Shown piece by piece: positions 32,768-55,820 of a stretch of DNA of 64,000 nucleotides. Under the pieces are notes generated by a model that was not told the DNA's origin, did no database searches, and was given only the letters and a program-made list of their open reading frames with translations. Numbering within the stretch: position 1 is the first letter of the stretch; each line of letters opens with the position of its first letter. This DNA comes from Candidatus Poseidoniaceae archaeon (GTDB lineage: Archaea; Thermoplasmatota; Poseidoniia; Poseidoniales; Poseidoniaceae), in assembly GCA_938075675.1 (NCBI GenBank), contig CALJHE010000003.1, positions 51,738 to 115,737 of the forward strand, written 5' to 3'. The translations under genes and the position numbers were made by a program.

Positions 32768-32941
32768 GTCGTTTTGGCACTTACTTTTTACCGTTTAAAT
32801 CGACATCCGAAACAGCGCTCAATGTGATGCAGCAAGGCATTCATCTGTTGTCCTTTCAGCGGAGTCATTAAAAGAGGCTCTAAAGTGGCGAAGACGCTTC
32901 AGCCTTGCTGCTGTCGCGCAAACACCTTTGAGGGAAAAAAT

Positions 32942-41900: not shown

Positions 41901-42508
41901 TCACCATCGCTAAGGGCGACACACGCTCGCAGATGTTCACTGCATTCGCTCCAGATGATTTTGATTCTGGTTCAAAGGTTGTAACTGTCACCGTAACGAG
42001 TGAAAACGGCATCAATACCACTTCATTCGATGTGGAAATTGTCAAGGCCAGTATTGTACTCAAGGATGTCGACCAAGGAACAATCCAAGAAATGTCAAAC
42101 ATATACGCGAATCGAGCTGGTAAACTGATTATTCCAATCGAGAACATTGGCAAATTGGGCAGTGACGATATTGTAGTTTCTGCTAGCATACAAGGCGGTC
42201 GAACCCTAGGTGCTCAAACCGTTTCGATCGCTCCAGAGGGAATGACAAACGTCACATTCGACATGGAGGCTTCCGATGCATCTGGCCTAGTACGATTCGA
42301 TGTACGTGTTGAAATCGTTGGCGAAGACAGTGAATTTACCGACAGTGCTGTTCAAGAGTTTGATTTCAGTATCGAGTATGCGATTGATGAGTCGAATGAA
42401 GATTCCAATTCCGACTGGTTTACCTTTGTCATCGTACTTCTCGGTGCCTTGGTGCTCTACGGAGGTGTTCGCATCTCCCGACGCAGTAACAAGGGCTCAC
42501 GGTTCTGA
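32942..42508 (+). CDS. aglB: giant oligosaccharyltransferase fusion: N-terminal polytopic domain + AglB/STT3 catalytic core + ~2200-aa extracellular beta-rich extension + C-terminal TM anchor
   Basis: WWDYG motif at nt 35807-35821 (aa about 975). STT3 first-loop motif FDADRSYPIGG at about 34232. Many TM helices between aa 20-880. Long Thr/Ser/Asn-rich extracellular region follows. The final 30 aa are a TM helix plus RISRRSNKGSRF. ATG at 32942 is preferred over the non-ATG track start at 32885. Confidence 0.75.
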   Translation: MEQITGTKSTAPAAPLGWLIAPLAVLLALAAIKLVGIDFELTADNLAPMLIVGAAGILGLVPSMLDQSKSASVSKATLSLSTLAVALIGAQAIYMLDHGAFSGLLFAFVTFGVHFMSSRGRHELATIIVFIAMGVNVGMFIASDALTTLPEIYNLAAEGEQQSLVSTFNLKNQAVGYLFFSHLTVFTLVGVLVATLARGVITPVGEAGWFSFLNNDTSSKFNKNNLPLQIALTVWALAHIGSLWHFETVSIADKLGITSAADYHGIVGYWQAFFTGIVAIVVAGMYSERWHTRAMTLGSLWVLYVVSSWYDAGMFSMDLLEGNWGSLIWLGLTFFIGVGIYSISTHEKWGGWVNRDDHEYSGARKFWNQHWSSVLIGLAFFFGLVIRTQWYVVPSMNAFGTGNWDMTGGSDPWYMKRVVDYILANNAHLIFDADRSYPIGGINPRPPIFTWSVAVVATLLEPFFSNGDAVWWAILSLPAIYGALTILPVAYIAREHINEKAAVVAAWLIAFMPAHVSHTTWALADHDAFIMLFITLGFMFWLRAVKYAGSERLLRSSSPSALSFINAFTAVTQERRAALSAAVLAGVSFGIVSLGWKGFVVGPSIIFLAYAAQVALNMFRRRDSTTLNVLFLTMLAVNFLMALPFYGHPQIDLMLDGTGLQPFLFIVIFTLAISFVTTGFRDKPWLLVLGVLAGTGTIFFIVLWLLKEANLSNAWDVLFTGSGYFTKTKIFGTVAEANAPNRGQLFAQFGPITFVLSLVMGILCIWSALRDRKQTKLVFGVWILAASFMAWTAARFMFNATPAIAVLGAWGIVSLWKWANWEGMVKTWKKMGIRSPEDRIRGARKALWRTPSFSAIMLVMIMLFGQQFTYGLDAAIPSSNNAEDDIDETIYNLIPDVFRWEIGGFSLLDDSTYDGNWYLGSFGSGFNDNGWNSAYEWLAEQDQDMKYSERPAFVSWWDYGFQALDTGEHPSVSDNFQTGIPATGNMLLARSQEDLVSMFIWQLGQGDLTYNVANTGNSEFTNGYQSIVGSYLTAEQMKIFNEISTSVDTDERVSFAKLNSYEVYRTNDDTVLARGYHHTDGVFDDSTQYWRVYDEGERLLCTDSLSTTCVDGDWSSEAEAENTFSNNIRTGNDNINRVTHYIIGDYWYTADLIEEYGSVSTNLHRSNTRLALTVQLLSNSLDSGDIIDMYDDLINMEGYYTVQDYDGAPGETVDRDHEIRYYAIDNRLYPRAGRYTADMNYNQGQPMGIFGAPTILSGQDVSTYMDEVYETIRGEFPDEMTRAEVDEAITQDFLNQQSGADIDPLQVQDVRVDHNSAFFDTMLARAYVGYGASTLGVDAGSSNPQPAQHFGQSGSPGSILSQGLPLPGAMTNHFVISNWYSPEANSSVTAEEQTVGISSTNTLVKILKYYSGAEISGQVTMSDNGQPLPGVRLLIERDAFSGEGAEDLDPDTYWVPIGFTDADENGQWSFDAPAGRIRVSVYAGDFDPTVAQDNIRSGAFSQGLGDILTETNDDRTINDITAILGEVANMSWLGENQHNITAEQADSNAPVGADFDIAVESSGISGEVTWSGHESFDGDALVSTEFILRNIWSLTDNYTLTTTNGSFTSSDSRILQGSGEATFVENGTFESDGVAFADDFTGTFTRSIGDKRVYTSNGTWDGKGTLLASWIAEENVLDCLDNETAPMPENSTVCIQDSTTSPVTYLLDGAVEANGRLTSDGISTLVTEHVGDSFEATGSFEGTGTLNGTGLFIGVGSFSGEMVQPGSFYLTGLLPGVYNMIAQLDNGKEVLLPDPVNVGISPSYDLAMTMPGSIFEDTLQDFYEEKLVNEVIEWVDTDLGMDSLVEIHTDEDGNFSYGPIASGEYFYRVDIDNDGWYELNETIYARGESENFTLAMDVPEMYDISLQLTSPVDPQTQTPYADVAQRVVTFTNSDPLFGPLNATSDETGMVYIELPMGAYTISDESGDDYILFDYVELNNEDVTMSSAYAIATYVNGSIRAPDGGLFSAEYTYADWAAQEAVYKFEQSQPASGLEVNFVANDLAFSTTVETDGNFSMRLPSGNTFHMTTLSLVSQMSSGQLVVLSGDAEMDIGLMYLEPTVATMGLVYLYDNTSLWDGLAPGYAAQEVVATDSTGLEWRTTIDDQGGFAFDLQPGDWDFTVDEELLNSTTVTDYAILDNEGIAPNSVELFVSPEPLTIELNIFMDSGGDGIFANGTAVTPAFSLIPLNNHGQQYNFTSNDYTAAGNISVVLEPGLYSIDFNETAADDENATDYNLLGDSTFETMIVGIEAYEDAVSFALRNEYLVTGQLSNSSGDGVEKQFLLRNDADDLWHNIASDVNGSFASYVPAGDWVAIVAPFSASNESMETYREAFTVSEDSSLRTGLNFTSIEVVTLNFQVQELNTDSNMSDVRITLVSHDGFGNITLSKSDQFGNVSETIMPGTWSMFLNQTEPQRQWSLDTFDAPFSTDNAVDGVLELGIVSPELMVEIGGKVFWDLNDDDLPGGTEGIANTTVSITGLNNTEIDTNVTTDEFGVWSLLVPIQDEYQVSVSKEGFSTEVYNVSNTSAYPVYAVPESYDIEMTAGNVTVSGNVTDINDAERLNGSIVTLYPSTGMVGETIVVESQFNNDELTWSAVISPGEWIVVVTEANPGENGGGVAIGLLDASISEGATLDLEMSLGGWLDLSTSWTDIKLDEYHAGSSSNGSIYMNETAVVTMTIGDDLEWDLPVGEDGTISVLMPASEIEMDSSFTTIQHDLQLEMEYIGGAVTLVAEGRSPVSLSYTRSINSDTSISMVEGSVTGATVDSELAFTAIEEGEGYQQIEFELQLNYEGTETVQVFDVLGQILVAPDEADWTIEFKNGSSYEDSYEVSLGIGNSTDDTTVQSSATVGVRITVANQSSAWHLEDPHTLKVRMLTDSTPSSEISVTVQVPQIYGLETSEEDESVGIGAGGSSMFGFVLENTGNGDDSYTIELSDNIPEGWEVTPMSSVITIAKGDTRSQMFTAFAPDDFDSGSKVVTVTVTSENGINTTSFDVEIVKASIVLKDVDQGTIQEMSNIYANRAGKLIIPIENIGKLGSDDIVVSASIQGGRTLGAQTVSIAPEGMTNVTFDMEASDASGLVRFDVRVEIVGEDSEFTDSAVQEFDFSIEYAIDESNEDSNSDWFTFVIVLLGALVLYGGVRISRRSNKGSRF

Positions 42509-42565
42509 TTTCAGACAACCCATTATATCCAGAGTTCCGAGTGAACCTGCATAGGGGGGGTAGCA

Positions 42566-43798
42566 ATGGAAGGGCTTGACAATGTGGAACTGCTTCCTGA
42601 GCCTGAGGATTCACGTATACTTTCTGTTGTAGATCCCGCTGTTGTAGGATTCCAAGACCAGTGGCGGTCAGAAGTTACTGGCTGGGCTCCAATGCAGGCT
42701 GTGCCAGTACCCCGCATACGCCGGCGTAAGATGCTCGTAACCAACGGCGTCGCCTTCTCTGTTCTTGTCATTCTGCTGCTGTATGTTTGGAATTCTGGAC
42801 TGCTCTTCCTTGAGATTCCTCCTCCAAAATCGGAATGGGCTGTCGAACAGTCTCAATTTTCGGATTTATCTGATATTGGCTTGTCCGGTGAAGGCGTTCG
42901 AGTCTGTATGGTTGACACTGGAATAGATCTCAGTAATCCGGCATTTTCGAATCTGCAGGTTACATTCAAGGACATGATCGGTACTTCTACCTCACCGGTA
43001 GACTACGGGTATGTTGCCCACGGGACGTTGATGGCAGGGATTCTTGTTTCGAATGATCATCAGCTCGGTGTAGCGCCGAACGTTGACCTTGCGATGGTAG
43101 CGGCTCTTGGCTCTGATGAGGATGACATGAACAGCGGTTCTGAAGACACAGTTGCCCGCTCAATTCGCTGGTGTCAAGATGAATATCAAGCACACATCAT
43201 ATCACTCTCCTTAGGTGGGGAGCAGAATGTTGAGATGCATACCGAGGGAAGCAGTGTCTCTGCTGTCCGAAGAGCAGTTGACTCGGGAATTTTCGTCGTT
43301 GCCGCTGCAGGTAACGATGGCGGTGGAAGCGATGACGGTTTGGTATCTGTTCCCGGTAATGTCCCTCGAGTCATTACCGTAGGCGCCTCTACCGAGTCTC
43401 AGAGTGTTTGGGCAAACTCTTCATCTGGGTCACAATCCTTGGTGAACGGTGAACAGCGGCAACACCCTCACATGAAACCAGAAGTAATTGCTCCTGGCGA
43501 GAATATAATCAGCACTGGTATCGGCGACACTTGGTTTTCCAGCAGTGGGACATCAGATTCAACGGTGTTTGTCACTGGTGCGCTGTCGCTTCTACTCGAG
43601 GCGTTCCCCGAATACAAGGCGACATCAGAATCAGACGGATCATGTATAGATGCAGTGAAGAACGCACTCATGGAATCAGCTTTGAAATACGACAATACTA
43701 CAACACACGATGACCGATGGGGATACGGTCAATTACAGGCTTTGGACTGGTATTCTTACCTTGATAATCAATCACCTGTGTGTTCGTTTTCCGATTAA
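42566..43798 (+). CDS. membrane-anchored subtilisin-like serine peptidase (S8)
   Basis: Catalytic triad motifs VCMVDTGID (Asp), HGTLMAG (His), GTSDSTVFVTGALSLL (Ser). N-terminal TM helix. 57 nt downstream of the AglB fusion stop. Confidence 0.75.
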   Translation: MEGLDNVELLPEPEDSRILSVVDPAVVGFQDQWRSEVTGWAPMQAVPVPRIRRRKMLVTNGVAFSVLVILLLYVWNSGLLFLEIPPPKSEWAVEQSQFSDLSDIGLSGEGVRVCMVDTGIDLSNPAFSNLQVTFKDMIGTSTSPVDYGYVAHGTLMAGILVSNDHQLGVAPNVDLAMVAALGSDEDDMNSGSEDTVARSIRWCQDEYQAHIISLSLGGEQNVEMHTEGSSVSAVRRAVDSGIFVVAAAGNDGGGSDDGLVSVPGNVPRVITVGASTESQSVWANSSSGSQSLVNGEQRQHPHMKPEVIAPGENIISTGIGDTWFSSSGTSDSTVFVTGALSLLLEAFPEYKATSESDGSCIDAVKNALMESALKYDNTTTHDDRWGYGQLQALDWYSYLDNQSPVCSFSD

Positions 43799-43971
43799 AG
43801 GCTGTGCTAAGTTGAATTTTCTGCACACTATCTCTCGGATATTTTGATACTTTAAATCATATATGATATTTATGAACTTAAAAGTTTGATATTCTTTATC
43901 AATATTGATACTCTTAAACTGACGATTGAGGCGCAGTATTATATTCTTGGTGGCTATGGAGAGTAGCAGAG
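43799..43971. promoter_or_regulatory. AT-rich upstream region of the beta-helix surface-protein gene with three TTGATAYTYTT direct repeats
   Basis: Repeats at about 43843-43853, 43885-43897 and 43904-43915. Confidence 0.4.
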
Positions 43972-46900
43972 GTGTCTATTTTGAAGAACACAACATCACA
44001 CAAGAGCATATCGCTGGTCGCACTCCTTTTGCTTTCAACGCTAACAGGGCTTATTGCTATACCAACTGCATCTGCAGTGAATGAAACCAAGTCTGGAATC
44101 ATTACCGGAACTGAAACTTGGACAGGGACCATGAACCTTAACGGCGACGTTGTTGTTGCTGAAGGCGCTAAGCTTGTTGTCAACGCCGGGACAGTGATCA
44201 ATATCCCATACGGTTACTACATCGACGTCGAAGGTGCAATCTGTATCGGTGACAGTGCTTGTGGTGCGAGTTCTGGCTCATCAGGCAATCAAGCTCGGTT
44301 CATATGGTCGACTCCTACCGATTATACCATCCAAGGCCGATGCTACTCCAACAGCACAAGCAATCCAAACTACAACAGCGATACTGCTTGCGGATCAGGC
44401 ATGATTATTCGCTCAACGATTGACCAGGCGATTACTTCGCTGAAGTATGCACATTTTGAAAACGCATACGGTCATCCTTTCGAAACCAACCAAGTGAGTG
44501 GTATGCAATACGGTGCCTTGGTTTTCGATGGTTCTACAACCTCTGCACAGGGTCTGTCGTTTGACAACATCAATACTTCGAACGTTATGGCTATCGACCT
44601 TGCTGCGCCGAGTATCTCTGATTCCACCTTCACTCTAGGTGTCGATGGAAACGGATACGATGCAGCAGCAGTTCGTGCTTACGGTGCTGGTGCAGGTATT
44701 TTGGCTACAATGGAAGTCTCGAACTCTGTTTTTACAGGAGATACTGCTGCAGAATGTGGCAACGATGGTCGTAGCCTAATTTACGTCGAAAGTTCGTACG
44801 TAGATTTCTCTAATCTTGAAATCAAGGATAACTCCTATGGATTCTTCATGAAAGAAAGTTCGGGCTCGATTACTGACTCGGATGTTAACGTGAAGTGCAG
44901 TGGAATTGACACGAACTCTCACAAAGTCACGGGCACAATCAACCACACCCTTGTCATCAACGATAACACCATTACAACCGCAGATGGTTCTGGAATTACT
45001 GCCTATGACGGTGCGATTGTCGTTGCAGAGCGCAACATTATCTCCGGTGCAGCGTCTGGATCAGGCTTTGGTATCCGCTCCTCAACAGTTACCGCAAACA
45101 ACAACGTCATCGGCCCAATTGGTGGCTGGAACGGATTGTGGATTTACGGAACATCCGATGTTGTTGCGGAGAACAATACCATTCAGGACACAGCCAAAGA
45201 AGCTGTTCTCATTGGTGAATACCACTATCTCGACCAAGGATGGAATGTCCCAACACCAACAGCAGCCCGTCTTTACCTCGCCAACAACCAAATTTCAAAC
45301 AACACGGGTATCTGTAACTCTCAAATGTACGGTGGAGACTTCCAATGCCCTGCAATACACATGTTCATGTCTTCTGCAACCCTGTACGATAACACAGTCA
45401 CGAACAACGGTGGCGACGGAATGAGAATCAAAGCGAGCATCGTCAATGCTCAACGAAACACCATTGAAGTCTCTGGGTTTGCAGCCAACATTTCACTGTT
45501 CGATGATAACTACGGTAACAAGTACGGCTCAATTGCTTACTTCTCTGAGAACACATACACGAATGCGACACAGGTCTACAACATTACCGAATCCCGTGTT
45601 ACTGTACAGTCTGAATTCATCCCAGATGCGGGCGGTAACGAAATATATCCTGTGCAAATGAGTTGGCTTGGCCCTGAATGTCCATATGTTCTCGATGAGT
45701 GTTTGCAAGTTCCTCCAACTTCAATCATGCCTCCAGCCTTCATGCCTTTGGCTCTGGAAGTTGTCGAAAACTCCACAGTGTTCTCGTACGCAAACCTTCA
45801 GAACTTCGATTCCTCCAAGATTCACGTTCAGAACCAAAACTCCGCCTGGGGTAGCCAAGTTCGTGAAGGGGAACTTGTTCGATACCAAGTCAAGGCACAA
45901 AACAGCAACGTCGTTGACGCAACTGTAATCATCCGAGATGCTTCTGGATTGCCGCTTTACACACTCACCACAGATGCGTTTGGTTTCACGCCAGAAGTTT
46001 CACTCCCATCCGACTTCCTCCTCGACCGTAACTGGAATCACAATGTTGGAGAAACAAATGTCCAGATTCCCGGAGTCCTCGATTCCGAAGGCAATCCAGT
46101 CTTCATTGACGAAAATTCCTGCGCCGATGGATACGATAATGACGGAGATACCAAGGTCGACTCCGAGGATGGAGATTGTACAGGTGGCCGAGAGTTACCT
46201 TTCTACACCGTAGAAGCGTACAAATTTGGAAAGGGTCAGAAGGATTTCAATTTCGTTCTGAGTGGAGCCATCGACGATGTCATTAACCTCGTGAACTTGA
46301 AACCAAGCGTCACTGTGACTCAAAACGATGGATATTCATTCGCTACGACTGCCACTCTAACTGGAGGCGCATGGGATGGAATTTCGGGACCATATGCGCT
46401 CGACCAAATCGCATATGACAGCCAATTCGGTGTCGTTAAGCGTGTGGAGATTCAACCCCCTGGCTCTACCGATTGGTACAACGCCGTGGACACCTCGGGT
46501 GCGAACGGAATGGTTACGAAGTCGACGCATCCGTTCAAAACATGGTCGTTTGAATGGGATTTGTCAGCACATCCAGAGGGTGAGGGAGACGTCACCTTCC
46601 GCGTCCGTTCATATGACGGGTTGGACTACTCGCCTGTAGAAGTACGAAAGTACAAACTGAATCTCGTGGCTCCGACAACTCTTGTGAATTCGCCGGCTGA
46701 TGGTTCATCGCATACCAACGGCAAAGTGACATTCACCGGTACTTCCAGTGATCCGTATTCGGGTACATGGGGCAGCGATATCAAATCCATTTGGTTCGAC
46801 ATCAATGGTCCAAACGGTTACACTGCAAACTTCGATGTATCGGGTTCGACTGCATGGGCATACGACTGGATTTTCCAAGAATTGCAAACAGGGCAGTATG

Positions 46901-48369
46901 ATTTCCGCATCTGGGCATCTGACAGTGATTTCTGCAACACGAAATCCAGCTGGGCTGATTGTGAACACGAAACTCGAACCATCAACATCAATACCGATAA
47001 CGCAATTCCTTTCGTTCAACTTAGTGAACCACTGAACTCTGACATTCTTCGAGCCAGTGACACTCAACTTATCCAGGGTGTCGCATTGGATAACGATGGG
47101 CTGGTGACTCGTGTCGAGATTTCAATCTTTGACCTAGCAAGCGGTACCACTGTAAACAACGGTCCGAATCCTGTGACAAACTTTGCTCCGAACGGTGCAT
47201 GGTACACAACTTGGGACACATCCGACCTTATCCATGACCAACAATATGAACTGGTCATCAAAGCATGGGACGGAAAGGACTTTTCGAATGAGGAGCGAAT
47301 CCGTATCACAATCGACAATCCAAGTGACGCAAACAATCTCGTTCCTGAATTCAACTCAACGGGTTGGTCGAGTACCATCACTCTGTTCTGTGACTCAAAC
47401 CCGACCAAACTCGACCGTTGCAACGGTGGAATCAGCGTCGACTTGATGGATTACTTTTCGGATCCTGATGGTGTCGAAGATGGTAAAACCGATGGGTTGA
47501 ACTTCGACATCTTTGACGATCCGACCAACTTGGATGATGATTTCTACGGTGATTACCTTACACTTTCCGATAAGGGAGTTGTCAGTTATAACCCCGCATT
47601 CGTCACTGGTCTCTCCAACGATGTTTCCGAATGGTCTCTCGTAGGGCTTATGTTTGTTGCTCGTGACGCATACGATTCAGTTGCCTACTCCTACAAGGTC
47701 AACGTCGTAGTCGTCGAAGTCTCATTCAGTGTCGTTCGTGACAACTCTGGACCTCTTGGGCCTGACTCTCCTGCATATTTCAGCGGCCAAGGTTTGCCGA
47801 ACAGTCTGGTTGAGGCTCGTTTCGACAGTCTCAAGGGCGTTCGTATTAACCAAACCCGCGTCAATGCAGATGCAACATGGACAATGGAAATTTCAAGCAG
47901 TCAACTTTCGGGCATGGAAGGGACAAGCAACATTATCTTCGAGATGGATGACCAAGTCTATTCAGTCCCTGGCGAGAACACAAACGCTCTCTTCCAACTC
48001 AGTGTTGGTGATGGTTCGGAATCCAATTCGAACGTTTGGATGATTGTCGGTGCTGTATTCGGAATCATTGTACTGTTAGGTGCTGGTATGTTCTTCTTCC
48101 AAGTCGAGTATGATGACATGGATGAACTTACTGAAATGGCACAAGCTGAACAAGAGGCTGCAACAGCAGACCCTTACGCATGGGCTAAGGCTCGACAAGA
48201 GCCAGTGGGCATTCCTGCTGCCGCCGTTGCAACGACTCCGGTCGCTGCTCAAACTGTGGCTGCTGCTGTTCAACCTGCAGCCCCACAGGCATCTCAACAT
48301 CCAGGATGGATTTGGGACTCGGAGTCCAACAACTGGGTTCCTGATCCAAACTACACTCCCGACCAGTGA
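43972..48369 (+). CDS. secreted right-handed beta-helix (PbH1-repeat) surface protein, tail-anchored
   Basis: Signal peptide. Parallel beta-helix repeats (NNTIQDTAKEAVLIGE, NNQISNNTGIC, DNTVTNNGGDGMRI; about 44700-45450). Downstream Ig-like regions. TM helix VWMIVGAVFGIIVLLGAGMFFF. About 100-aa Ala/Pro-rich cytoplasmic tail. Confidence 0.6.
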   Translation: MSILKNTTSHKSISLVALLLLSTLTGLIAIPTASAVNETKSGIITGTETWTGTMNLNGDVVVAEGAKLVVNAGTVINIPYGYYIDVEGAICIGDSACGASSGSSGNQARFIWSTPTDYTIQGRCYSNSTSNPNYNSDTACGSGMIIRSTIDQAITSLKYAHFENAYGHPFETNQVSGMQYGALVFDGSTTSAQGLSFDNINTSNVMAIDLAAPSISDSTFTLGVDGNGYDAAAVRAYGAGAGILATMEVSNSVFTGDTAAECGNDGRSLIYVESSYVDFSNLEIKDNSYGFFMKESSGSITDSDVNVKCSGIDTNSHKVTGTINHTLVINDNTITTADGSGITAYDGAIVVAERNIISGAASGSGFGIRSSTVTANNNVIGPIGGWNGLWIYGTSDVVAENNTIQDTAKEAVLIGEYHYLDQGWNVPTPTAARLYLANNQISNNTGICNSQMYGGDFQCPAIHMFMSSATLYDNTVTNNGGDGMRIKASIVNAQRNTIEVSGFAANISLFDDNYGNKYGSIAYFSENTYTNATQVYNITESRVTVQSEFIPDAGGNEIYPVQMSWLGPECPYVLDECLQVPPTSIMPPAFMPLALEVVENSTVFSYANLQNFDSSKIHVQNQNSAWGSQVREGELVRYQVKAQNSNVVDATVIIRDASGLPLYTLTTDAFGFTPEVSLPSDFLLDRNWNHNVGETNVQIPGVLDSEGNPVFIDENSCADGYDNDGDTKVDSEDGDCTGGRELPFYTVEAYKFGKGQKDFNFVLSGAIDDVINLVNLKPSVTVTQNDGYSFATTATLTGGAWDGISGPYALDQIAYDSQFGVVKRVEIQPPGSTDWYNAVDTSGANGMVTKSTHPFKTWSFEWDLSAHPEGEGDVTFRVRSYDGLDYSPVEVRKYKLNLVAPTTLVNSPADGSSHTNGKVTFTGTSSDPYSGTWGSDIKSIWFDINGPNGYTANFDVSGSTAWAYDWIFQELQTGQYDFRIWASDSDFCNTKSSWADCEHETRTININTDNAIPFVQLSEPLNSDILRASDTQLIQGVALDNDGLVTRVEISIFDLASGTTVNNGPNPVTNFAPNGAWYTTWDTSDLIHDQQYELVIKAWDGKDFSNEERIRITIDNPSDANNLVPEFNSTGWSSTITLFCDSNPTKLDRCNGGISVDLMDYFSDPDGVEDGKTDGLNFDIFDDPTNLDDDFYGDYLTLSDKGVVSYNPAFVTGLSNDVSEWSLVGLMFVARDAYDSVAYSYKVNVVVVEVSFSVVRDNSGPLGPDSPAYFSGQGLPNSLVEARFDSLKGVRINQTRVNADATWTMEISSSQLSGMEGTSNIIFEMDDQVYSVPGENTNALFQLSVGDGSESNSNVWMIVGAVFGIIVLLGAGMFFFQVEYDDMDELTEMAQAEQEAATADPYAWAKARQEPVGIPAAAVATTPVAAQTVAAAVQPAAPQASQHPGWIWDSESNNWVPDPNYTPDQ

Positions 48370-48428
48370 AGCATCTTCTGCTCACAGGAGCGGAAGTGTT
48401 GAAGAGTAGAAAAACGCGAGGTGAGAAT

Positions 48429-50954
48429 ATGTCTGTTCAACCAAAGCCAGGTGTGCAAGAAAGAATACTTCTGCACCTTCTTGATTATTCAGATTTTAAG
48501 AACAGTGTCGAAGTTCCTTTTGCTCTCTCCCAAATGGGGATTGCTAACGCAGTAGCGATTGCTCGATCGAACGTGCCTCGGGCAATTGCTGGACTCAAAG
48601 ACCAAGGTTTGCTTATCGAACGCCAAGCACACGTCACCGGCGTTTCTCGTAAGCGTAAAGCGTACTTTCTCACAGACCCAGGCATGAATGTCTCAGAAGA
48701 CACCTGGGAAAGGCTTCGTCATTTCCAACTTCGCAGTATAATGGACGATGGAGCGATTATCAATTCCACTCTTGGGGAAATCAACGACCATCTGGAATTT
48801 TCTATGCGGCCGGTGGACATTATTCGTTACATGGATGACAACTGCGTTTTGGATACTCGGATTCTCTCAGCAGACTTGGTGGAGCGTGACTTATCCAAAC
48901 ATGTGGAAAAGCAGTTGGTGACCGCGCTTGGAGATTTACCTCGATTACGGCACTTTTACGGTAGGGAAAAAGAACTCGACAATATGGCGAATTTGATTGA
49001 CGCCCGAGCTACAACACTGCTTATCCCGGGTATTGCAGGTATTGGAAAAACGACAATCGCTTCCAAGTTGATTGAGCGGTTTATGCATCGCCGGAATCTG
49101 TTGTATCACAGATGCCAGGATTGGGAAGGTTCTCGCTCGTTCTTCGAGTCGATTGCGGATTGGTTGGCTAACATAGGTGACTCAACCTTTGCAGATTACC
49201 TTGCTGCCACACCGGTACCACAACCTGCTGACGCTGCACGTCTCTTGGTTGACTCACTCGAGGGGACTCCAAGCTTGATTGTCATCGATGATTTCCACAA
49301 AGTTGCAGACACAACCCTCCACCAGACTTTCCAAGCCATGTCATTGGCTCTGCTTGGTAGTGAAGAGGAAATTGGTCTCGTGATATTCTCCCGTTCGTTC
49401 AAGCCCGTTGTCCCAACGAAGGATGCTGAAGGGCGTATTGCGAGTTTGGTTTTACCTCTCGATGGTCTTGATTCAGATGCTGGCCGTCAATTACTCACGA
49501 GTTTTGATAACCTGGGTGATGAGCAATGGCTTCACATTCACGGCTTATCGCGTGGCCATCCACTCGTTCTTGAGTTGATTAATCGGGGCGCTTCTGCAGG
49601 CGCTTTCCACGAAACCTTGGAAAATTACGTCACCGTGGAAATCTTCTCAAAGTTGAGCGCAGAGCAGAAACGAGTTTTGTCTGCTCTGGCAATTTATCGA
49701 GAACCAGTGATTCTGTCTGCACTTGCAGAACAAGGACTTGACACCGACGAACTTGATTCTCTTGTTGAACAAGGATTAGCCCGTCAGGGTGATGTTGATT
49801 TTTACGATGTTCACGATTTAATACGAGAGTTCTTGGTTCGTAGTCTCGATGAAAGTACTAAACAAGAATTCCATGCGAAGTGCTGCAACTGGTATGAAAA
49901 GCAGACTTCTGCACCTGCAATTTTGATTGAGCACATTTACCACCTCATCCGTTCCGGAAAGGGAGAAGAGGCGGCGGTTCTCATTGCAGAGCAAGGCCGT
50001 AATTTGATTGCGCAAGGTCACATGGAACTTCTTGGTTTGATGGAAGGCTTGACTATGGAAGACCTTGATAATCCTATACGCATGCGTGTACGTCAATTAC
50101 ACGGTGAATTGTTGGTTCTTCTTGGGCGGTTTTCAGAAGCAGAGACCGTTTTTGTATCCATCTCTCAACTGGACCCTCAATCGAAAGCGGTTCGGTTGAA
50201 TGCTGAAGTTCACTCCGCTCTCGCTGATCTTGCGCTCAAGCAGGGTGATGCAGACAAAGCACTTGCCATGCACCGGGAAGCATTGGAGAAGTTCATTGAA
50301 TGTGGAGATGCAAAAGGAGCAGCCCGATCATACAGCAACATGGGATACCTACTGCGCCGTAAAAATGATGTCTCGAAGGCTCTTGAAGCGTATGGGGAAG
50401 TTGAGAAAATCCTCAGTGAATCAGATGGAGTCGAACTGATCGGAACCCAACTGACCCTTGCTCGTGCTTTCCTTGAATTGAATGAGATTGACCGAGCACG
50501 AGACCATGCGCTCCAAGCCTTTGAAGTTTCAGACGATGGAAGTGATGTACTGCTTCATGCACGTGCACAAGCCGTACTTGGTCGATACTACGCAAAGGTT
50601 GGTGATGCAGATGTTGCTTCACACCACTACACTACGGCCCTGGAGACGATGAGCGTTGCAGGAGATTTGCTTTCACTGGTGGAAATTACTATTCTTCTTG
50701 GAGAAGTCCTACAAGATGCAGGGCGAGCAGAAGATGCGATGGAGCACTATCGTGAGGCCCTTGTTATTGCCGAGGCTAACGATCTGCGTATGCAAATTGG
50801 AGAACTACTTTCCCGTCTTGGTGGTGTTGCCCCTGATAAGCGTCGAAGAATGGAATATTTGCAAAGAGCCCTTGCGGTATTCCGCGAACTTGGTGCAAAG
50901 TCAAGGATGCGTGATGTCCAAGCCCAAGTCCATGCAGCAGTCATGGGTCGCTGA
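48429..50954 (+). CDS. STAND NTPase regulator: N-terminal winged HTH + NB-ARC-type ATPase + C-terminal TPR repeats
   Basis: wHTH (ERILLHLLDY...VPRAIAGLKDQGLL). Walker A GIAGIGKTT at about 49027-49055. Walker B LIVIDDFH. GHPLVLEL (GxP) motif. At least 8 TPR-like repeats. ATG at 48429 avoids overlap with the upstream gene. Confidence 0.6.
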   Translation: MSVQPKPGVQERILLHLLDYSDFKNSVEVPFALSQMGIANAVAIARSNVPRAIAGLKDQGLLIERQAHVTGVSRKRKAYFLTDPGMNVSEDTWERLRHFQLRSIMDDGAIINSTLGEINDHLEFSMRPVDIIRYMDDNCVLDTRILSADLVERDLSKHVEKQLVTALGDLPRLRHFYGREKELDNMANLIDARATTLLIPGIAGIGKTTIASKLIERFMHRRNLLYHRCQDWEGSRSFFESIADWLANIGDSTFADYLAATPVPQPADAARLLVDSLEGTPSLIVIDDFHKVADTTLHQTFQAMSLALLGSEEEIGLVIFSRSFKPVVPTKDAEGRIASLVLPLDGLDSDAGRQLLTSFDNLGDEQWLHIHGLSRGHPLVLELINRGASAGAFHETLENYVTVEIFSKLSAEQKRVLSALAIYREPVILSALAEQGLDTDELDSLVEQGLARQGDVDFYDVHDLIREFLVRSLDESTKQEFHAKCCNWYEKQTSAPAILIEHIYHLIRSGKGEEAAVLIAEQGRNLIAQGHMELLGLMEGLTMEDLDNPIRMRVRQLHGELLVLLGRFSEAETVFVSISQLDPQSKAVRLNAEVHSALADLALKQGDADKALAMHREALEKFIECGDAKGAARSYSNMGYLLRRKNDVSKALEAYGEVEKILSESDGVELIGTQLTLARAFLELNEIDRARDHALQAFEVSDDGSDVLLHARAQAVLGRYYAKVGDADVASHHYTTALETMSVAGDLLSLVEITILLGEVLQDAGRAEDAMEHYREALVIAEANDLRMQIGELLSRLGGVAPDKRRRMEYLQRALAVFRELGAKSRMRDVQAQVHAAVMGR

Positions 50955-50955
50955 A

Positions 50956-51432
50956 TTATTCGTACGATTGCGGTCGGTCGTACTGCAATGATGTGACGCC
51001 GTCTGAGTGAACAACCCAAACCGAAGTTACTCCCGCCAATACGATGGTTCCTTCGTGGGATCCCGCACCTGTTCCTGATAGGGACACACTGGTGTCAAGT
51101 GTCCCTCCGTCGTGAATCAGTTCAATCGAGGTGTCGGTGAGTTGCAAAGTAATTCTTGCTTCATCCGCCTCGGTTAATCTCCATGTTACCTTTTCGGCGT
51201 ACTCGACTGCACCCATGCGGCTTGCTTCGTCAGCCCGTTCGACTGCCGCTGCCAAATCATCAAGATTTGATTGAATTGCATTTTCGTTCCACCGTTCTCG
51301 GGTTGCAGTTTCTATTTGGTATGCCCAAATACTGAATGTTGTAAGCAACAGCACTCCGAGTAGGAACGTGAATATGTAGCCAAGTTCAGTTGCTGCAGCA
51401 TGCTCATCTCTGCGAAGTTGATTTCTGTTCAT
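50956..51432 (-). CDS. small protein with archaeal class-III (pilin-like) N-terminus
   Basis: ATG at 51432 overlaps the stop of the upstream gene (ATGA). N-terminus MNRNQLRRDEHAAATELGYIFTFLLGVLLL. Confidence 0.45.
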   Translation of the reverse strand: MNRNQLRRDEHAAATELGYIFTFLLGVLLLTTFSIWAYQIETATRERWNENAIQSNLDDLAAAVERADEASRMGAVEYAEKVTWRLTEADEARITLQLTDTSIELIHDGGTLDTSVSLSGTGAGSHEGTIVLAGVTSVWVVHSDGVTSLQYDRPQSYE

Positions 51433-53639
51433 GAGACCGCCTCCGTCATATGAGCATTGAGTGCCGCCATTTGAAGCGTAAATTGTATTGGTTCTCCATT
51501 GGTGTGCCAAACGGCTTCTGATGTGCCATACGAGGGGTCGGGAACCCATCCGACATAATCGGTGAGTAAGTCGATACGTCCTGGATAAATGGTCCAGTCT
51601 TCACTTGCTTCAAGACCGTCTGCAGATGATTCTGCAATGGCTACTCCGTACGGTTTCGACCAACCCCTTCTGACCTCGTAGGCTGTGGCTGAGGCCAAAG
51701 ATGAACGGTCAACAAGTTCAATGTCGAGATTCATTTTTCCTGCACCACTTACGCTGTCTGCAGTCGGGTGAAGCGATGGAATCGTAGCGGCAAATCGTGG
51801 CCCAGGTCCTCCACGGTCCGACGGTGAAACGACAATGTAGGGTTCAAATTCCGGATGGTTCGTGACTACAGCACCACCTGCATAGGCCACTTCCATCCCA
51901 ACGATTGAGGATTGGAACTCATAACTTAGTCTGGAAAGGTGGAAACCCCATACTGTCCCGAGTGTGGCATGACTTGATGCTCCGTTTTCGCCAATCAGAC
52001 TAATCTGCATACTTGCAGGGTGTGTTCCAGCCCTCCATGCATTCTGAAGGTCAACTTGGCTTCTTCCGCTCATTGATTGCCAAGGGAGTGCAGAACTGAT
52101 CCATCCACTTGCTTGAACATTAATCGGTAAGCAACGTTGGGCACCATCATGCATAGCTTGGAGTAAACCTTCTTGGCCTCGAATAGAATATACGCGCAAT
52201 GAATCCCCGTCGCTCACATTGATTTGGGTTATGCCTTGTTCGAGTTCAACCGTTTTGTGATTCACATTCTCGAGGAATGTGCCGTTTGCAACGGTGCTAC
52301 CGGTCATGTTCCATTCTGTGTAGTATCCAGCATGGGTCATGTGGAGTCTATGAACTCCTGATTGACTGTTGTGGAATGTGTGTAATTGTCCAGAAAGTGC
52401 TCCGGTATCATCTGCTGGTTCGACTTGCAGTCCTGAGCCGCTTGAATTCTTTCTCCATGTGACGAAGATGTCGCCGTTTGCATCTAGCATTGGCGCTCCA
52501 TCGATATCGGCAGGAGGCCATGGGAAGGATGTACTTTGGTTTGCTGCAACTGAGAGCCCACCGCCTCTCCACGTGACTGTCACGCTGTCAGTGCTGGGGT
52601 TGGAGAACACGAGTTCTCCCTCGAGTGAAGGGCTGATGAAGGAGTGGCCGAGATATTGACCATCGGTACTGGGTAACGCCATCTGGCCAGTCGTCGAGTT
52701 CGTGTTGGTTTGCAGAATCAGTCTTGATGGTGAACTGGTCGAGATGTGGACCACTTCTGGCGAGGATGTGCTCAATTGGTGATTGAAGTCAACTCCTACT
52801 CGGTTTTGGTTGGATGGTAAGGCATAGAATGTGTTCGTAGTATCGTTTTGAATCGTAATTTGGTTTGCTGTTTCACTGAGAATCTGGATTTGATTCTCAC
52901 CGGCAGGTAGAGGAATCGACCATGAGCTTCCTGTCGAATCGACAGGGTTTGGGTCGTTGGATTGCATCACTGTCGTCCCTCCACTGCCGACCGAGAGAAG
53001 TAGGTGCAATTGGTGAGAGGAGTGAATGGTTGTTTCACCAAGTTCACTCATGTCCAGAACACGCATGCCATCGACCATCAATTTCAGTTCCGACAATGTT
53101 TCGCTGCCATCCATGACTTCCACATCGATCGGTCCGAGCGGAAGGGCAAGCCCTGGAGATGCTGTAAGAAGGACCTCATCGACCCACTCGGGGATTGTGA
53201 ACATGTACGGGTTCGCAGGACCGAGTCTCAAGTCATCGATACAAACTGCTGTATTCATCGATTCAGGGTGACGTATTCGTAGTTCATCGTCGTAGTCAAG
53301 TGCGCCTTGGACACGGAACGAGGTGTCGTCGGCCCAAGTCGCCGAATACCACATACTGCTCTGCATCATGTTCCAGTTGAGCGTTCCGTCAACCGGTATC
53401 AGGCTAATCTCTGTAGAGTCGCCAGGCATTCCTGTTTCACTCAATGCAGCAGTTTGGTGTGCCAGCAGAGTCATTTGAGCCGACATGTCGTGACGTTCTA
53501 TCGAGCCTTCGAGCTCTTCGATAACAGGTATCATGGATACCATCATCATGGCGATAATCGACAGTACGCCACCGAACAGGAGTACCGTTGCGACGGCTGC
53601 TGACACCGCACTTTCATCTCGCTGGAGCATGGATTTCAT
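51429..53639 (-). CDS. large (736 aa) protein with archaeal class-III (pilin-like) N-terminus
   Basis: N-terminus MKSMLQRDESAVSAAVATVLLFGGVLSII. Start overlaps the upstream stop in ATGA. Remainder is an extracellular beta-rich domain. Confidence 0.5.
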   Translation of the reverse strand: MKSMLQRDESAVSAAVATVLLFGGVLSIIAMMMVSMIPVIEELEGSIERHDMSAQMTLLAHQTAALSETGMPGDSTEISLIPVDGTLNWNMMQSSMWYSATWADDTSFRVQGALDYDDELRIRHPESMNTAVCIDDLRLGPANPYMFTIPEWVDEVLLTASPGLALPLGPIDVEVMDGSETLSELKLMVDGMRVLDMSELGETTIHSSHQLHLLLSVGSGGTTVMQSNDPNPVDSTGSSWSIPLPAGENQIQILSETANQITIQNDTTNTFYALPSNQNRVGVDFNHQLSTSSPEVVHISTSSPSRLILQTNTNSTTGQMALPSTDGQYLGHSFISPSLEGELVFSNPSTDSVTVTWRGGGLSVAANQSTSFPWPPADIDGAPMLDANGDIFVTWRKNSSGSGLQVEPADDTGALSGQLHTFHNSQSGVHRLHMTHAGYYTEWNMTGSTVANGTFLENVNHKTVELEQGITQINVSDGDSLRVYSIRGQEGLLQAMHDGAQRCLPINVQASGWISSALPWQSMSGRSQVDLQNAWRAGTHPASMQISLIGENGASSHATLGTVWGFHLSRLSYEFQSSIVGMEVAYAGGAVVTNHPEFEPYIVVSPSDRGGPGPRFAATIPSLHPTADSVSGAGKMNLDIELVDRSSLASATAYEVRRGWSKPYGVAIAESSADGLEASEDWTIYPGRIDLLTDYVGWVPDPSYGTSEAVWHTNGEPIQFTLQMAALNAHMTEAVS

Positions 53640-54721
53640 CGTGAAACCTCCACACGCTTAACATCGACTTCGAGAATAAGTTGATTTTCTTGCGATTCGA
53701 CAGTGAATCCATCGGCACCACTTGCTCGAAGATACGGTGCGTATCCAGTAAATGTGTCCAGTGTTCCGGACGCCCTGTTCAGCGTATGTTCTTCCAGCAT
53801 CTTGTCGTGGTATTGCGGTGTGATGACATCATTAAGCGCATTTTCAACAGTGAATTGGAGGTGGTATGCATTGCCAGTAAACAGCGTCATAGGACCAAGC
53901 GAAACCATGTTCATGCCGATTTTTTCCCCTGAGCCTATTGAGCCGTTAATGATGACATCTGTGAGAACAATCGACAAACGCAACTCACCAGTAACCAGCG
54001 TGTCGAGTTCGATGTTGGGGAATTGGGATACCTTCCAAGGTTCATTCGGGAATCTTTCAGCTCGAGCGTCATTCACCAAAGCAATTTCATGTTCCCCTAG
54101 TCCGAGTGAGGTTGAAATTTGAATGCCGGATACGATGTACGAAACGCTCGTGTGCAGAGCACGTTCGTCAGCGTCGAACACAGTGACAGTCATCCAGTGG
54201 TCTTGAGAGGACTGATGTTCGATCACAACTTCATTGAATGAACCACTGAATGCATGGGATTCGATACCCAGTGGGCTTTCGATTGATACGCTTCGAGCAG
54301 TTTCATTGATGGCTGTAATGCCAATTGCTGAGTTGTTGATGTTACGAACAGTAATTCGCTCATCTGGAGTTAAATCTGCAGCAATCGTCCAAGTTTCAAC
54401 TTTGATGACCGGTTGAACCATTGTCGACTTGAGTGCCAATGTATGTCGGATGCCTGTGCCTTCTGGTGCGCTTCCAGCCACATCGATTCTGTCTTCAAAA
54501 CGGTCAGCAATTCCGTTCGCACTGTTCCAGTTTGTGTTGTCTTCGAAATCAGAAATGTAGGGGCTGAGGAAAATCCACACCCCTCCCATGATTGTGACGA
54601 CCATAGCCAGCATCATCACGACCCCGAGAACCTCGCTGACAGCCCTTTGGTCTCGGCGAAGAGACGGGCGAAGTACAGAGGGGTGGTGTGCGTTCACAGA
54701 CAGCACAACCTTTGGTATCAT
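53636..54721 (-). CDS. protein with archaeal type IV pilin-like N-terminal domain (DUF1628-like)
   Basis: N-terminus ...LRRDQRAVSEVLGVVMMLAMVVTIMGGVW closely matches the archaeal pilin consensus (RAVSEVIGVILMVAITVIL). 361 aa. Confidence 0.55.
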   Translation of the reverse strand: MIPKVVLSVNAHHPSVLRPSLRRDQRAVSEVLGVVMMLAMVVTIMGGVWIFLSPYISDFEDNTNWNSANGIADRFEDRIDVAGSAPEGTGIRHTLALKSTMVQPVIKVETWTIAADLTPDERITVRNINNSAIGITAINETARSVSIESPLGIESHAFSGSFNEVVIEHQSSQDHWMTVTVFDADERALHTSVSYIVSGIQISTSLGLGEHEIALVNDARAERFPNEPWKVSQFPNIELDTLVTGELRLSIVLTDVIINGSIGSGEKIGMNMVSLGPMTLFTGNAYHLQFTVENALNDVITPQYHDKMLEEHTLNRASGTLDTFTGYAPYLRASGADGFTVESQENQLILEVDVKRVEVSR

Positions 54722-54768: not shown

Positions 54769-55680
54769 TTAGTGCTTCTTCGGCTGGATGTCCGATGCGT
54801 TGGGTTGTTCCTCCGTTCGGCCGATATAGTGGGAGTTTTCGGGGCCATCTTGGAGTGATATTGTGATGTCCCCACTAAACACTTCGTCGATGTGATACAA
54901 AACTGTGGATTCAGCTAAGTGTGGTTGATTGTTCTTTTCTGAAAGGTGAGTCAAGGAAATACTGCGTGTGGCCGGTGTACAAACTTGTGCCAAGAATTGG
55001 CCGGTTTGGTCGTTGGATAAGTGACCTCCTCGTCCACTGATGCGGTCTTTCAGCGAGAACGGATACGGTCCGTTCATCAAACGGTTGTGGTCGTAGTTTG
55101 CTTCAATTGCTATGTGCTCACATCCTCGAACATGAGTGATTAATTCATCCGTCCAAGAACCCAAATCTGTGATGACTGCTGCCCTTTGTCCGTTGTGGCT
55201 GGCAACAAAGGCGACATTATCTGCTCCCGAATGAGGTACTGGCACAGGTAGGATCGAAAGGTCGTCACTGACTTGAATCAAATCCAGCGAGTCAAAATAA
55301 TGTGTTAATTCTGTTTGTAGGCCCAACTCTTCTGCGGTTCGATGGTTTGCTTGAACTTTCATCTTCCAACGTTTTTGGGCGACCAGTGCGCCACCACCAT
55401 GGTCTCCGTGATGGTGACTAACGAAGATGTAATCAATTTCAGTTGGATGGATGTTGAGTCGAGCAAGTCGTTTCTCTAATTGTGCTCCACTGAATCCTTG
55501 ATCGATGAGAACTTTCGCCTGTTCGGTCTCAAGCAAAGTAGCGTTTCCGCGACTGCCTGTTCCGAGGTGGGTCAGTACCATTGTCATCTCAATCGTGTCT
55601 ACTGGTCGCGAGAGGCCTTTGAAGACACCGCCTTTTCCGTTTGAATTGTCGCCCTTTCCGGTGTATCTCACTTCTTCCAT
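54769..55680 (-). CDS. MBL-fold metallo-hydrolase
   Basis: HHHGDH metal-binding motif. A likely true start is the internal ATG at about 55587 (MTMVLTHLGTGS). A G/C-rich hairpin separates it from the downstream pilin-like gene. Confidence 0.6.
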   Translation of the reverse strand: MEEVRYTGKGDNSNGKGGVFKGLSRPVDTIEMTMVLTHLGTGSRGNATLLETEQAKVLIDQGFSGAQLEKRLARLNIHPTEIDYIFVSHHHGDHGGGALVAQKRWKMKVQANHRTAEELGLQTELTHYFDSLDLIQVSDDLSILPVPVPHSGADNVAFVASHNGQRAAVITDLGSWTDELITHVRGCEHIAIEANYDHNRLMNGPYPFSLKDRISGRGGHLSNDQTGQFLAQVCTPATRSISLTHLSEKNNQPHLAESTVLYHIDEVFSGDITISLQDGPENSHYIGRTEEQPNASDIQPKKH

Positions 55681-55820
55681 GGGGCGGATTAGGGTGTTTA
55701 TTCGAGTTCATTTCAGGGTCGATTATTTCGGCTCTGTCCGAACATCGCTCCATCATCCTCATAAGTGTCTTGAGAAGCATGTTAACTTGCGAAGCGTATG
55801 CTTTGTAGGCTGGTCTCCAA

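Follow-up and report, generated by a model that had tools for sequence, protein, structure and literature searches.

Among the STAND (signal transduction ATPases that possess numerous domains) NTPases, which are best known from innate immunity and cell death, the transcription-factor branch is understood mainly from the bacterial proteins MalT, GutR and AfsR. GutR, for example, carries an N-terminal helix-turn-helix (HTH), an NTPase and C-terminal tetratricopeptide repeats (TPRs) and acts as a ligand- and ATP-dependent activator. A crystal structure is available for the archaeal PH0952 clade, but we know of no inducer, operator or regulon. Here we consider a STAND gene located on the plus strand at 48429-50954 of a 64-kb stretch of DNA from a Candidatus Poseidoniaceae archaeon; this stretch is called the window below, and coordinates are positions in it. 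The Poseidoniaceae are the most abundant planktonic archaea of the surface ocean, where the uncultured Marine Group II (MGII) dominates the archaeal plankton. On balance, we think it probable that the encoded protein is a transcription factor which targets the block of surface-protein genes immediately upstream of its own gene and thereby forms an autoregulatory loop.

The closest described system is PH0952 of Pyrococcus horikoshii, a predicted transcription factor in which DNA binding is assigned to an ArsR-like domain at the N-terminus. Its resting form is ADP-bound and doubly autoinhibited, and its clade and that of APAF1 are sister groups (Lisa et al., NAR 2019, PMC6468293). Throughout the STAND superfamily, a closed ADP-bound nucleotide-binding oligomerisation domain (NOD) is held by an arm and a sensor until an inducer binds the sensor, and opening, ATP exchange, formation of a head-to-tail multimer and activation of the effector then follow (PMC6468293). 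GutR of Bacillus subtilis has also been cited as a STAND transcriptional regulator (PMC13581612).

PH0952 (6MFV) was the sole match to the NOD of the Poseidoniaceae protein among PDB sequences (phmmer, E 1e-25, query residues 170-520). The search was taken to E = 1, the remaining matches being generic TPR proteins, and no APAF1, NLR or MalT chain was listed up to that value. The FxGR, P-loop, hhhhDD, GHPL and VHD motifs are common to both proteins in the alignment, and the domain order is the same, with an ArsR/MarR-like winged helix-turn-helix (wHTH) followed by NOD, an arm (putative in the query) and a TPR sensor. Judged by its sequence, the query is thus a PH0952-type archaeal STAND protein with an N-terminal wHTH, a NOD and a TPR sensor. 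Nevertheless, the similarity is distant, the phmmer match being confined to the NOD-arm region, and the query differs in its longer TPR array (about 280 amino acids, aa) and in a conserved 70-aa alpha/beta linker between wHTH and NOD. Since PH0952 itself has no known function, inducer or target, the comparison informs the architecture and the switch mechanism, not the biology.

The N-terminal domain is, on the evidence of profiles and a structural model, a winged-helix fold of the MarR/ArsR/PadR type, in agreement with the winged helix proposed in the initial annotation. Although the Pfam match of the query itself (HTH_Crp_2 at aa 12-66) was sub-threshold, HTH_Crp_2 was matched by 32 of 33 family members (best E 3e-10), PadR by 24, MarR_2 by 23 and TrmB by 17. 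A profile of aa 1-110 built from the 33 members matched MarR/SlyA, CprK/Crp-HTH and PadR proteins in the PDB, the best match being a SlyA-like MarR protein (E 1.7e-4). AlphaFold applied to the single sequence of aa 1-181 gave an unusable model (pLDDT 35), which was replaced by an AlphaFold 2 (AF2) model from a 29-sequence family alignment (pLDDT 87, pTM 0.78). In the latter, helices H1 (aa 9-18) and H2 (aa 35-42) precede the recognition helix H3 (aa 46-58), a beta-hairpin wing with strands at aa 62-69 and 76-81, and H4 (aa 83-96); a basic motif in the wing, RKRK at aa 73-76, is conserved family-wide. The top 50 Foldseek matches were all wHTH DNA-binding proteins, nearly all of them regulators of the MarR/PadR/Fur type. 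A nuclease or protease domain in this position had been named at the outset as the finding that would point away from DNA binding; Pfam, profile and Foldseek searches of the N-terminus matched no nuclease, protease, TIR or SIR2 effector, and the wHTH fold was found instead.

The P-loop, the hhhhDD Walker B and the GxP motif noticed at first reading are all present (Table 1), and to these can be added a sensor-1 Arg at aa 322 and an MHD-like VHDLIREF at aa 461-468 (VHD at 461-463). Among the 33 family members, whose overall identity is 24-31%, conservation reaches 95-100% at Walker A, Walker B, the sensor-1 Arg, the GxP motif and the His of the MHD-like motif. Pfam places AAA_16 at aa 176-302 (E 7e-10), and the long TPR array reported earlier is matched by TPR_12 (E 3e-21), TPR_MalT (aa 588-701), TPR_1, TPR_2 and other families reaching about aa 830. 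The linker at aa 97-170 was modelled by AF2 as a beta-hairpin (aa 100-114), short helices and a low-confidence tether (aa 159-168), and it gave no separate fold match in the structure search. In 80 distinct orthologues the wHTH with its wing (aa 27-82), the nucleotide-binding domain (NBD) and the helical domain (HD) are nearly invariant, the C-terminal 140 aa of the TPR array are highly conserved, and the arm/hinge at aa 481-590 is most variable. The arm region shows the lowest mean conservation in the protein (0.61) and is seen only through the PH0952 alignment, which reaches aa 520. The original term NB-ARC is inaccurate as a family label: Pfam NB-ARC (PF00931) scored 14.8 bits against a threshold of 23.5 (E 0.017), and the NTPase is best named a STAND NOD of the PH0952 clade.

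The bacterial regulators resemble the protein in part. MalT, the activator of the maltose regulon of Escherichia coli, shares a STAND NOD, a putative arm and a TPR-like sensor, as reflected in the TPR_MalT hit, and is characterised by an inducer- and ATP-dependent multimer that assembles on repeated asymmetric boxes upstream of promoters. However, it carries a C-terminal LuxR-type HTH, whereas the wHTH of the query is N-terminal; Pfam detected no GerE/LuxR domain in the query, and the NCBIfam MalT model NF003420 scored 50.1 bits, far under its cutoff of 537. AfsR and the large SARPs (Streptomyces antibiotic regulatory proteins), which are transcriptional activators acting on direct repeats, also have an N-terminal DNA-binding domain followed by a STAND NTPase and TPRs, but theirs is an OmpR-type wHTH (Trans_reg_C) combined with a BTAD domain, and neither was detected in the query. 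Moreover, the AfsR model, whose cutoff is 1430 bits, scored 38.5 and matched nothing but the TPR region, and the label SARP/AfsR-like given in the initial annotation is inaccurate as an assignment to a family. GutR shares the HTH-NTPase-TPR order but is bacterial and has another type of HTH. The APAF1/NB-ARC (AP-ATPase) clade has GxP and MHD-like motifs in common with the query, but the sensor of the query consists of TPRs and not of WD40 repeats or leucine-rich repeats (LRRs), and its effector is a wHTH and not a CARD, TIR or coiled-coil (CC) domain.

An exhaustive search of 1.84 billion representative sequences yielded 16,605 matches at E < 1e-3, of which 513 were below 1e-30. At 50% identity all full-length orthologues formed a single cluster. 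A second tier, with 24-31% identity, can be aligned from about residue 9 onwards and therefore shares the wHTH-NOD-TPR architecture; its named members are Thermoplasmata and other archaea, with JGI labels reading either 'TPR repeat protein/DNA-binding MarR family transcriptional regulator' or 'MalT'. Both the architecture and the clade were already known, and public annotations call the homologues MarR/MalT-like TPR proteins. A subfamily of short homologues, of about 520-550 aa and matching query aa 7-415, was found in 22 marine metagenome loci (within L138-L167); these apparently possess the wHTH and NOD without the long TPR array, and in most loci reaching far enough a WD40-repeat protein of about 1140-1290 aa is encoded on the opposite strand, one to two open reading frames (ORFs) upstream.

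The STAND gene is a core gene of the Poseidoniales. Relatives are encoded in 352 species-representative genomes, and the best 80, at 70-99% identity, include the original MG-II genome CM001443.1 and are all labelled as archaeal metagenome-assembled genomes (Poseidoniaceae/Poseidoniales or broader archaeal names), with one exception. This is a contig titled 'Verrucomicrobiales bacterium isolate ARS100' (L076, NZEQ01000036.1), which carries the full archaeal nine-gene block with a STAND protein 71% identical to the query and is probably mis-binned. The position of the gene is fixed as well: among 84 loci, each one that extends far enough carries on the plus strand, in this order, a giant STT3-domain gene, an S8 subtilase gene, a gene for a surface protein of about 1450 aa and the STAND gene. 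Homologues beside surface-protein genes in related genomes, which the initial annotation had suggested looking for, were thus found throughout MGIIa and MGIIb wherever the locus extends far enough. The STAND gene is also the best-conserved gene of the block, its identity being 70-98%, whereas the giant protein ranges over 36-92% and the surface protein over 50-96%. In MGIIa the STAND gene is followed on the minus strand by genes for a protein of about 160-197 aa, a DUF7289 protein, a pilin-like protein and a metallo-beta-lactamase (MBL)-fold protein, and then by a gene of about 1900 aa on the plus strand.

Orthologues of MGIIb (Thalassarchaeaceae), at 47-56% identity, help to separate the conserved from the variable neighbours. 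In this lineage one related protein carries the name Candidatus Thalassarchaeum and one STAND homologue the name Candidatus Thalassarchaeaceae. These loci keep the giant-S8-surface-STAND order together with the MBL-fold gene and a 1906-aa gene, but pilin-like genes, present in all MGIIa loci, occurred in none of the MGIIb loci examined. The pilin-like genes are thereby ruled out as a conserved partner, and the partner is therefore the co-directional surface block upstream. The public gene call of one MGIIb orthologue (P0326, at L085:9830-10000) begins at an internal Met, so that 55 aa of the winged helix, encoded in frame upstream of the public start, are missing from it; automated annotation therefore misses the DNA-binding domain in this lineage.

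The surface gene and the STAND gene are likely to be co-transcribed, because the gap between them is short (9-67 nt across the 86 loci, with about half of them at 9-26 nt) and without a TATA-like element of its own. Cross-species alignment of this gap revealed no conserved element except a Shine-Dalgarno (SD)-like sequence, and it holds no TATA-like box of the ATTAT[AG] type, unlike the regions upstream of other genes in the window. In the window itself, the surface gene stops at 48369, leaving 59 nt before the STAND gene. The plus-strand ORF is open from 48366 (GTG) or 48429 (ATG) through 50954; ATG 48429 is the likely start codon, because the orthologues are all 840-841 aa long and an SD-like GAGGTGA (48418-48424) lies 4 nt upstream. 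The surface protein has an N-terminal signal-like segment and a C-terminal hydrophobic anchor, as read from its translation.

A promoter for such a surface gene/STAND unit can be proposed in the S8-to-surface intergenic region (43799-43971), which was aligned across species. It contains TGATAY boxes with the consensus wTGATAYTnTwA at a spacing of 19/23/19, alternate boxes being 42 bp apart, and the spacers between them are unconserved. This is the sole such cluster in the window, where 3 overlapping pairs were found and 0.26 expected. Among 67 distinct MGIIa promoters, four phased boxes occur in 27, three in 8 and the proximal two in 32, always at fixed positions of about -128, -109, -86 and -67 from the start codon (67/67). 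They are followed in 64 of the 67 by GCAGTRTTATA, which begins 27-28 nt from where the last box starts and is situated about 30-40 nt upstream of the start codon. In the window this element reads GCAGTATTATA; an SD-like element lies downstream of it, and similar ATTAT[AG] elements occur upstream of other window genes. A palindromic reading of boxes 2 and 4 (ATCATATATGAT and TATCAATATTGATA) was rejected since it is not conserved in other species, and the boxes were therefore treated as direct repeats. They constitute a candidate upstream activating site or operator, and their layout, direct repeats about two helical turns apart upstream of a TATA-like element, is what would be expected, by analogy, for a multimerising activator such as MalT. 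Whether it is the STAND protein that binds them is another matter, and this assignment we consider doubtful.

The regulatory role of the protein is well supported by its predicted wHTH fold, its NOD motifs and the PH0952 match, and here the first description, a signal-transducing STAND regulator with a DNA-binding HTH, stands. By homology with PH0952, MalT and APAF1, the resting state would be an ADP-bound monomer in which the NOD is closed by the arm and the TPR sensor. Binding of an inducer at the TPR sensor would release this autoinhibition, ADP would be exchanged for ATP and the NOD would multimerise head to tail, gathering several MarR/ArsR-like wHTH domains on the DNA and changing transcription. 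The most likely target would be the promoter of the 1465-aa surface gene/STAND unit, leading to positive autoregulation, and in MGIIa the TGATAY boxes upstream of the surface-gene TATA-like element would be the best candidate binding sites. We infer nucleotide switching, oligomerisation and DNA binding, and equally the inducer, what the target is and in which direction it is regulated. The further suggestion of the initial annotation, that the protein controls the neighbouring surface genes, gains circumstantial support from the invariant order in both MGII families, the short gap and the MGIIa boxes, but it is limited by two findings in MGIIb: the pilin-like genes are missing there and so are not the conserved partner, and the boxes are missing too, so that no operator can be named with confidence.

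Several observations weigh against a target next door. Whole 22-kb loci show the same gene order in all species, so that its conservation is not peculiar to the surroundings of the STAND gene, and synteny of the entire region within one order, the Poseidoniales, is therefore weak evidence of functional coupling. TGATAY box pairs are absent from 221 kb of MGIIb loci; none occurs in the MGIIb S8-to-surface gap, which has its own TTAAAT-type element, nor upstream of the giant gene in two loci related to that of P0326 (L172 and L173). Yet the recognition helix is almost identical in MGIIb, which lowers our confidence in the operator assignment; either the boxes are those of a different factor, or MGIIa and MGIIb do not have the same target. 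Direct-repeat boxes are, in addition, unusual for MarR-type dimers. The protein could then be a STAND transcription factor with its regulon elsewhere, the adjacency reflecting inherited gene order and the TGATAY boxes being bound by a different factor, a reading that would fit both the region-wide synteny and the missing MGIIb boxes and that we regard as possible, if rather unlikely. It is harder to reconcile with the 9-67 nt gap, whose lack of a TATA-like element points to co-transcription with the surface gene, and with the survival of the giant-S8-surface-STAND block, but not of the pilin-like genes, across the split between MGIIa and MGIIb.

Distant family members bear on the same question. 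We inspected 85 further loci, which form 35 clusters at 45% identity or less, and defined a large neighbour as an ORF within two ORFs of the STAND gene that has at least 1000 aa, or at least 600 aa if truncated; the test is crude, since the ORF calling was home-made and the loci themselves supplied the background. A large neighbour was present in 14 of the 35 clusters and immediately adjacent in 10, compared with 16 of 358 ORFs (4.5%) in the background farther off (binomial P ~9e-4 within two ORFs and ~6e-4 for adjacency), and this enrichment in unrelated lineages (P ~1e-3) argues against a regulon elsewhere. Of five distant members looked up directly, P0170 is encoded between two giant proteins (CARDB, LTD, Peptidase_C11/M14, Big_7), P0130 is divergent from a 2733-aa alpha-2-macroglobulin/CARDB protein, P0138 adjoins 1268-aa PKD and 1704-aa FG-GAP proteins, and P0173 has an MBL gene next to it and a 1078-aa Big_13/beta-helix protein encoded about 2 kb away; P0131 is located beside a ribosomal operon. 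Other large neighbours assigned by Pfam include a Pilin_N+CARDB+VWA giant, a GH57 protein with an SLH-like module and an amidase/fn3/MAM protein, and several of the large neighbours are surface or secreted proteins. However, 21 of the 35 clusters have no large neighbour, as would be anticipated if the regulon lay elsewhere, and some of the large neighbours are a PPDK-like enzyme, which is cytoplasmic, or WD40 proteins of unknown location. This mixed set rules out that all large neighbours are surface proteins, and the link of the family to large neighbours is recurrent but not a rule.

Two further explanations dispense with control of transcription. The protein could be a TPR/NTPase scaffold or chaperone-like switch acting on the surface-biogenesis proteins (the STT3-type glycosyltransferase, the S8 protease and the surface protein), with the wHTH serving protein contacts; peptide binding is a property of TPR arrays, a winged helix sometimes mediates protein contacts, an example being the winged-helix domain (WHD) of STAND proteins, and no operator could be tied to the protein. 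We consider this improbable, given that the N-terminal domain matches bona fide DNA-binding regulators across both HTH and wing, that the basic wing is conserved family-wide and that PH0952 and MalT, which have the same architecture, are regarded as transcription factors (PMC6468293). An antiviral STAND (Avs-like) sensor, whose TPR domain would recognise a viral protein, is very improbable: STAND-TPR architectures do occur in defence systems, and there were weak PADLOC matches to PDC-S73 (E 3e-4) and PDC-S27 (E 5e-4) in the P-loop region, but a wHTH holds the effector position, no defence genes lie nearby, and a core gene at a single fixed locus, 70-99% identical over 80 species and the best conserved of its neighbourhood, shows a pattern opposite to that of patchy, variable defence genes. 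On the weakness of these P-loop/TPR matches and the core-gene distribution, we reject assignment to a defence system.

For transcriptional control of the surface block, which we prefer, the new elements are that the STAND gene is a core, positionally fixed gene of the Poseidoniales, that the surface block, once separated from the pilin-like genes, is its conserved partner, and that the regulatory hypothesis becomes testable through a conserved promoter element with sharp definition. Particle attachment and cell-surface proteins are thought to drive niche partitioning in MGII (PMC6461757). A STAND gene fixed beside a glycosylation/protease/surface-protein block provides a concrete case for regulation of the MGII cell surface. 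More speculatively, and with little confidence, we suggest that PH0952-type STAND proteins might be archaeal ligand-gated ATP switches for very large surface-protein genes, the Poseidoniaceae member activating its own operon through the TGATAY boxes. If so, this would be the first regulon, operator and physiological role for the PH0952 STAND clade and would provide a handle on surface switching in MGII, for example between free-living and particle-attached states.

Table 1. Coordinates of the STAND gene, its encoded domains and motifs, and neighbouring features of the window
Feature	Position (nt)	Strand	Residues (aa)	Basis and remarks
Upstream conserved block, giant STT3 + S8	32885-43798	+		Syntenic in MGIIa and MGIIb loci reaching far enough
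Giant protein gene, 3207 aa, STT3 domain	32885-42508	+		ORF, Pfam
S8 subtilase gene	42566-43798	+		ORF, Pfam
Four same-strand TGATAY boxes (candidate operator)	43845-43911	+		Starts 43845, 43864, 43887, 43906; promoter alignment
BRE (B recognition element)/TATA-like element of surface-gene promoter, GCAGTATTATA	43933-43943	+		Fixed distance, 64/67 MGIIa promoters
Surface protein gene, 1465 aa, beta-helix + Big_7	43972-48369	+		Pfam; translation
STAND gene, wHTH-NOD-arm-TPR, 841 aa	48429-50954	+	1-841	Stop TGA 50952-50954; ORF, orthologue length, SD-like GAGGTGA
N-terminal wHTH	48429-48716	+	1-96	Profiles, AF2 model, Foldseek
Small alpha/beta linker module	48717-48938	+	97-170	AF2 model; family-wide conservation as pattern only
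STAND NOD (NBD-HD-WHD)	48939-49868	+	~171-480	AAA_16, 6MFV alignment, motifs; sub-domain borders approximate
FYGRE motif			176-180	Within NOD
Walker A, GIAGIGKTT	49029-49055	+	201-209	
Walker B, LIVIDDFH	49275-49298	+	283-290	
GxP motif, GHPLVLEL	49554-49577	+	376-383	
Arm-like helical region	49869-50108	+	~481-560	Reach of 6MFV alignment, variability; borders approximate
TPR sensor array	50109-50951	+	~561-841	Pfam TPR families, conservation profile
Three pilin-like genes: 197 aa, 736 aa DUF7289, 361 aa DUF7289/Pilin_N	50956-54721	-		
MBL-fold gene	54769-55680			Pfam similarity to Anti-Pycsar Apyc1

The placement of the STAND gene between surface-protein and pilin-like genes, as first described, agrees with the Pfam annotation of its neighbours. 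The gene downstream is convergent and ends at 50956, one base after the STAND stop codon. The archaeal origin of the window is evident from the Pilin_N and DUF7289 genes and from homologues named Candidatus Poseidoniaceae or Poseidoniales. The three pilin-like genes and the TGATAY boxes are both specific to MGIIa and both missing from MGIIb, and a connection between them may or may not exist.

The MBL-fold gene (similar to Anti-Pycsar Apyc1, of the cyclic-nucleotide phosphodiesterase type) adjoins the STAND gene convergently in MGIIb (L085:12362-13168) and, divergently, a 28%-identical family member in an unrelated archaeon (L088:7230-7910), while in MGIIa the three pilin-like genes stand between it and the STAND gene. 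It may be a second conserved partner.

Orthologues of the giant gene encode STT3 (oligosaccharyltransferase, AglB-like) together with CarboxypepD_reg-like repeats, and in the 3207-aa ORF an N-glycosylation enzyme seems to be fused to a huge extracellular protein. The gene stands after purD in both MGII families. In the relatives of the MGIIb locus L085 (L172:3713-3826 and L173:4826-4929), a perfect, conserved palindrome, AACCATTC-N3-GAATGGTT, is located beside a TTATAAC TATA-like element upstream of the giant STT3 gene. This palindrome resembles an operator of the repressor type and has no relation to the TGATAY boxes.

Finally, between the MBL-fold gene and the following 1917-aa gene, a block at 55735-55767 (TGTCCGAACATCGCTCCATCATCCTCATAAGTG) is very strongly conserved and recognisable in MGIIb too, and it is followed by a short hairpin-like sequence, GCGAAGCGTATGCTTTG, at 55789-55805. 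A structured RNA upstream of the 1917-aa gene was rejected, because in the 6-bp stem given by RNAalifold all changes are one-sided and no pair is compensatory. The element at 55735-55805 may instead represent the promoter and 5' untranslated region of the 1917-aa gene, or a divergent promoter.

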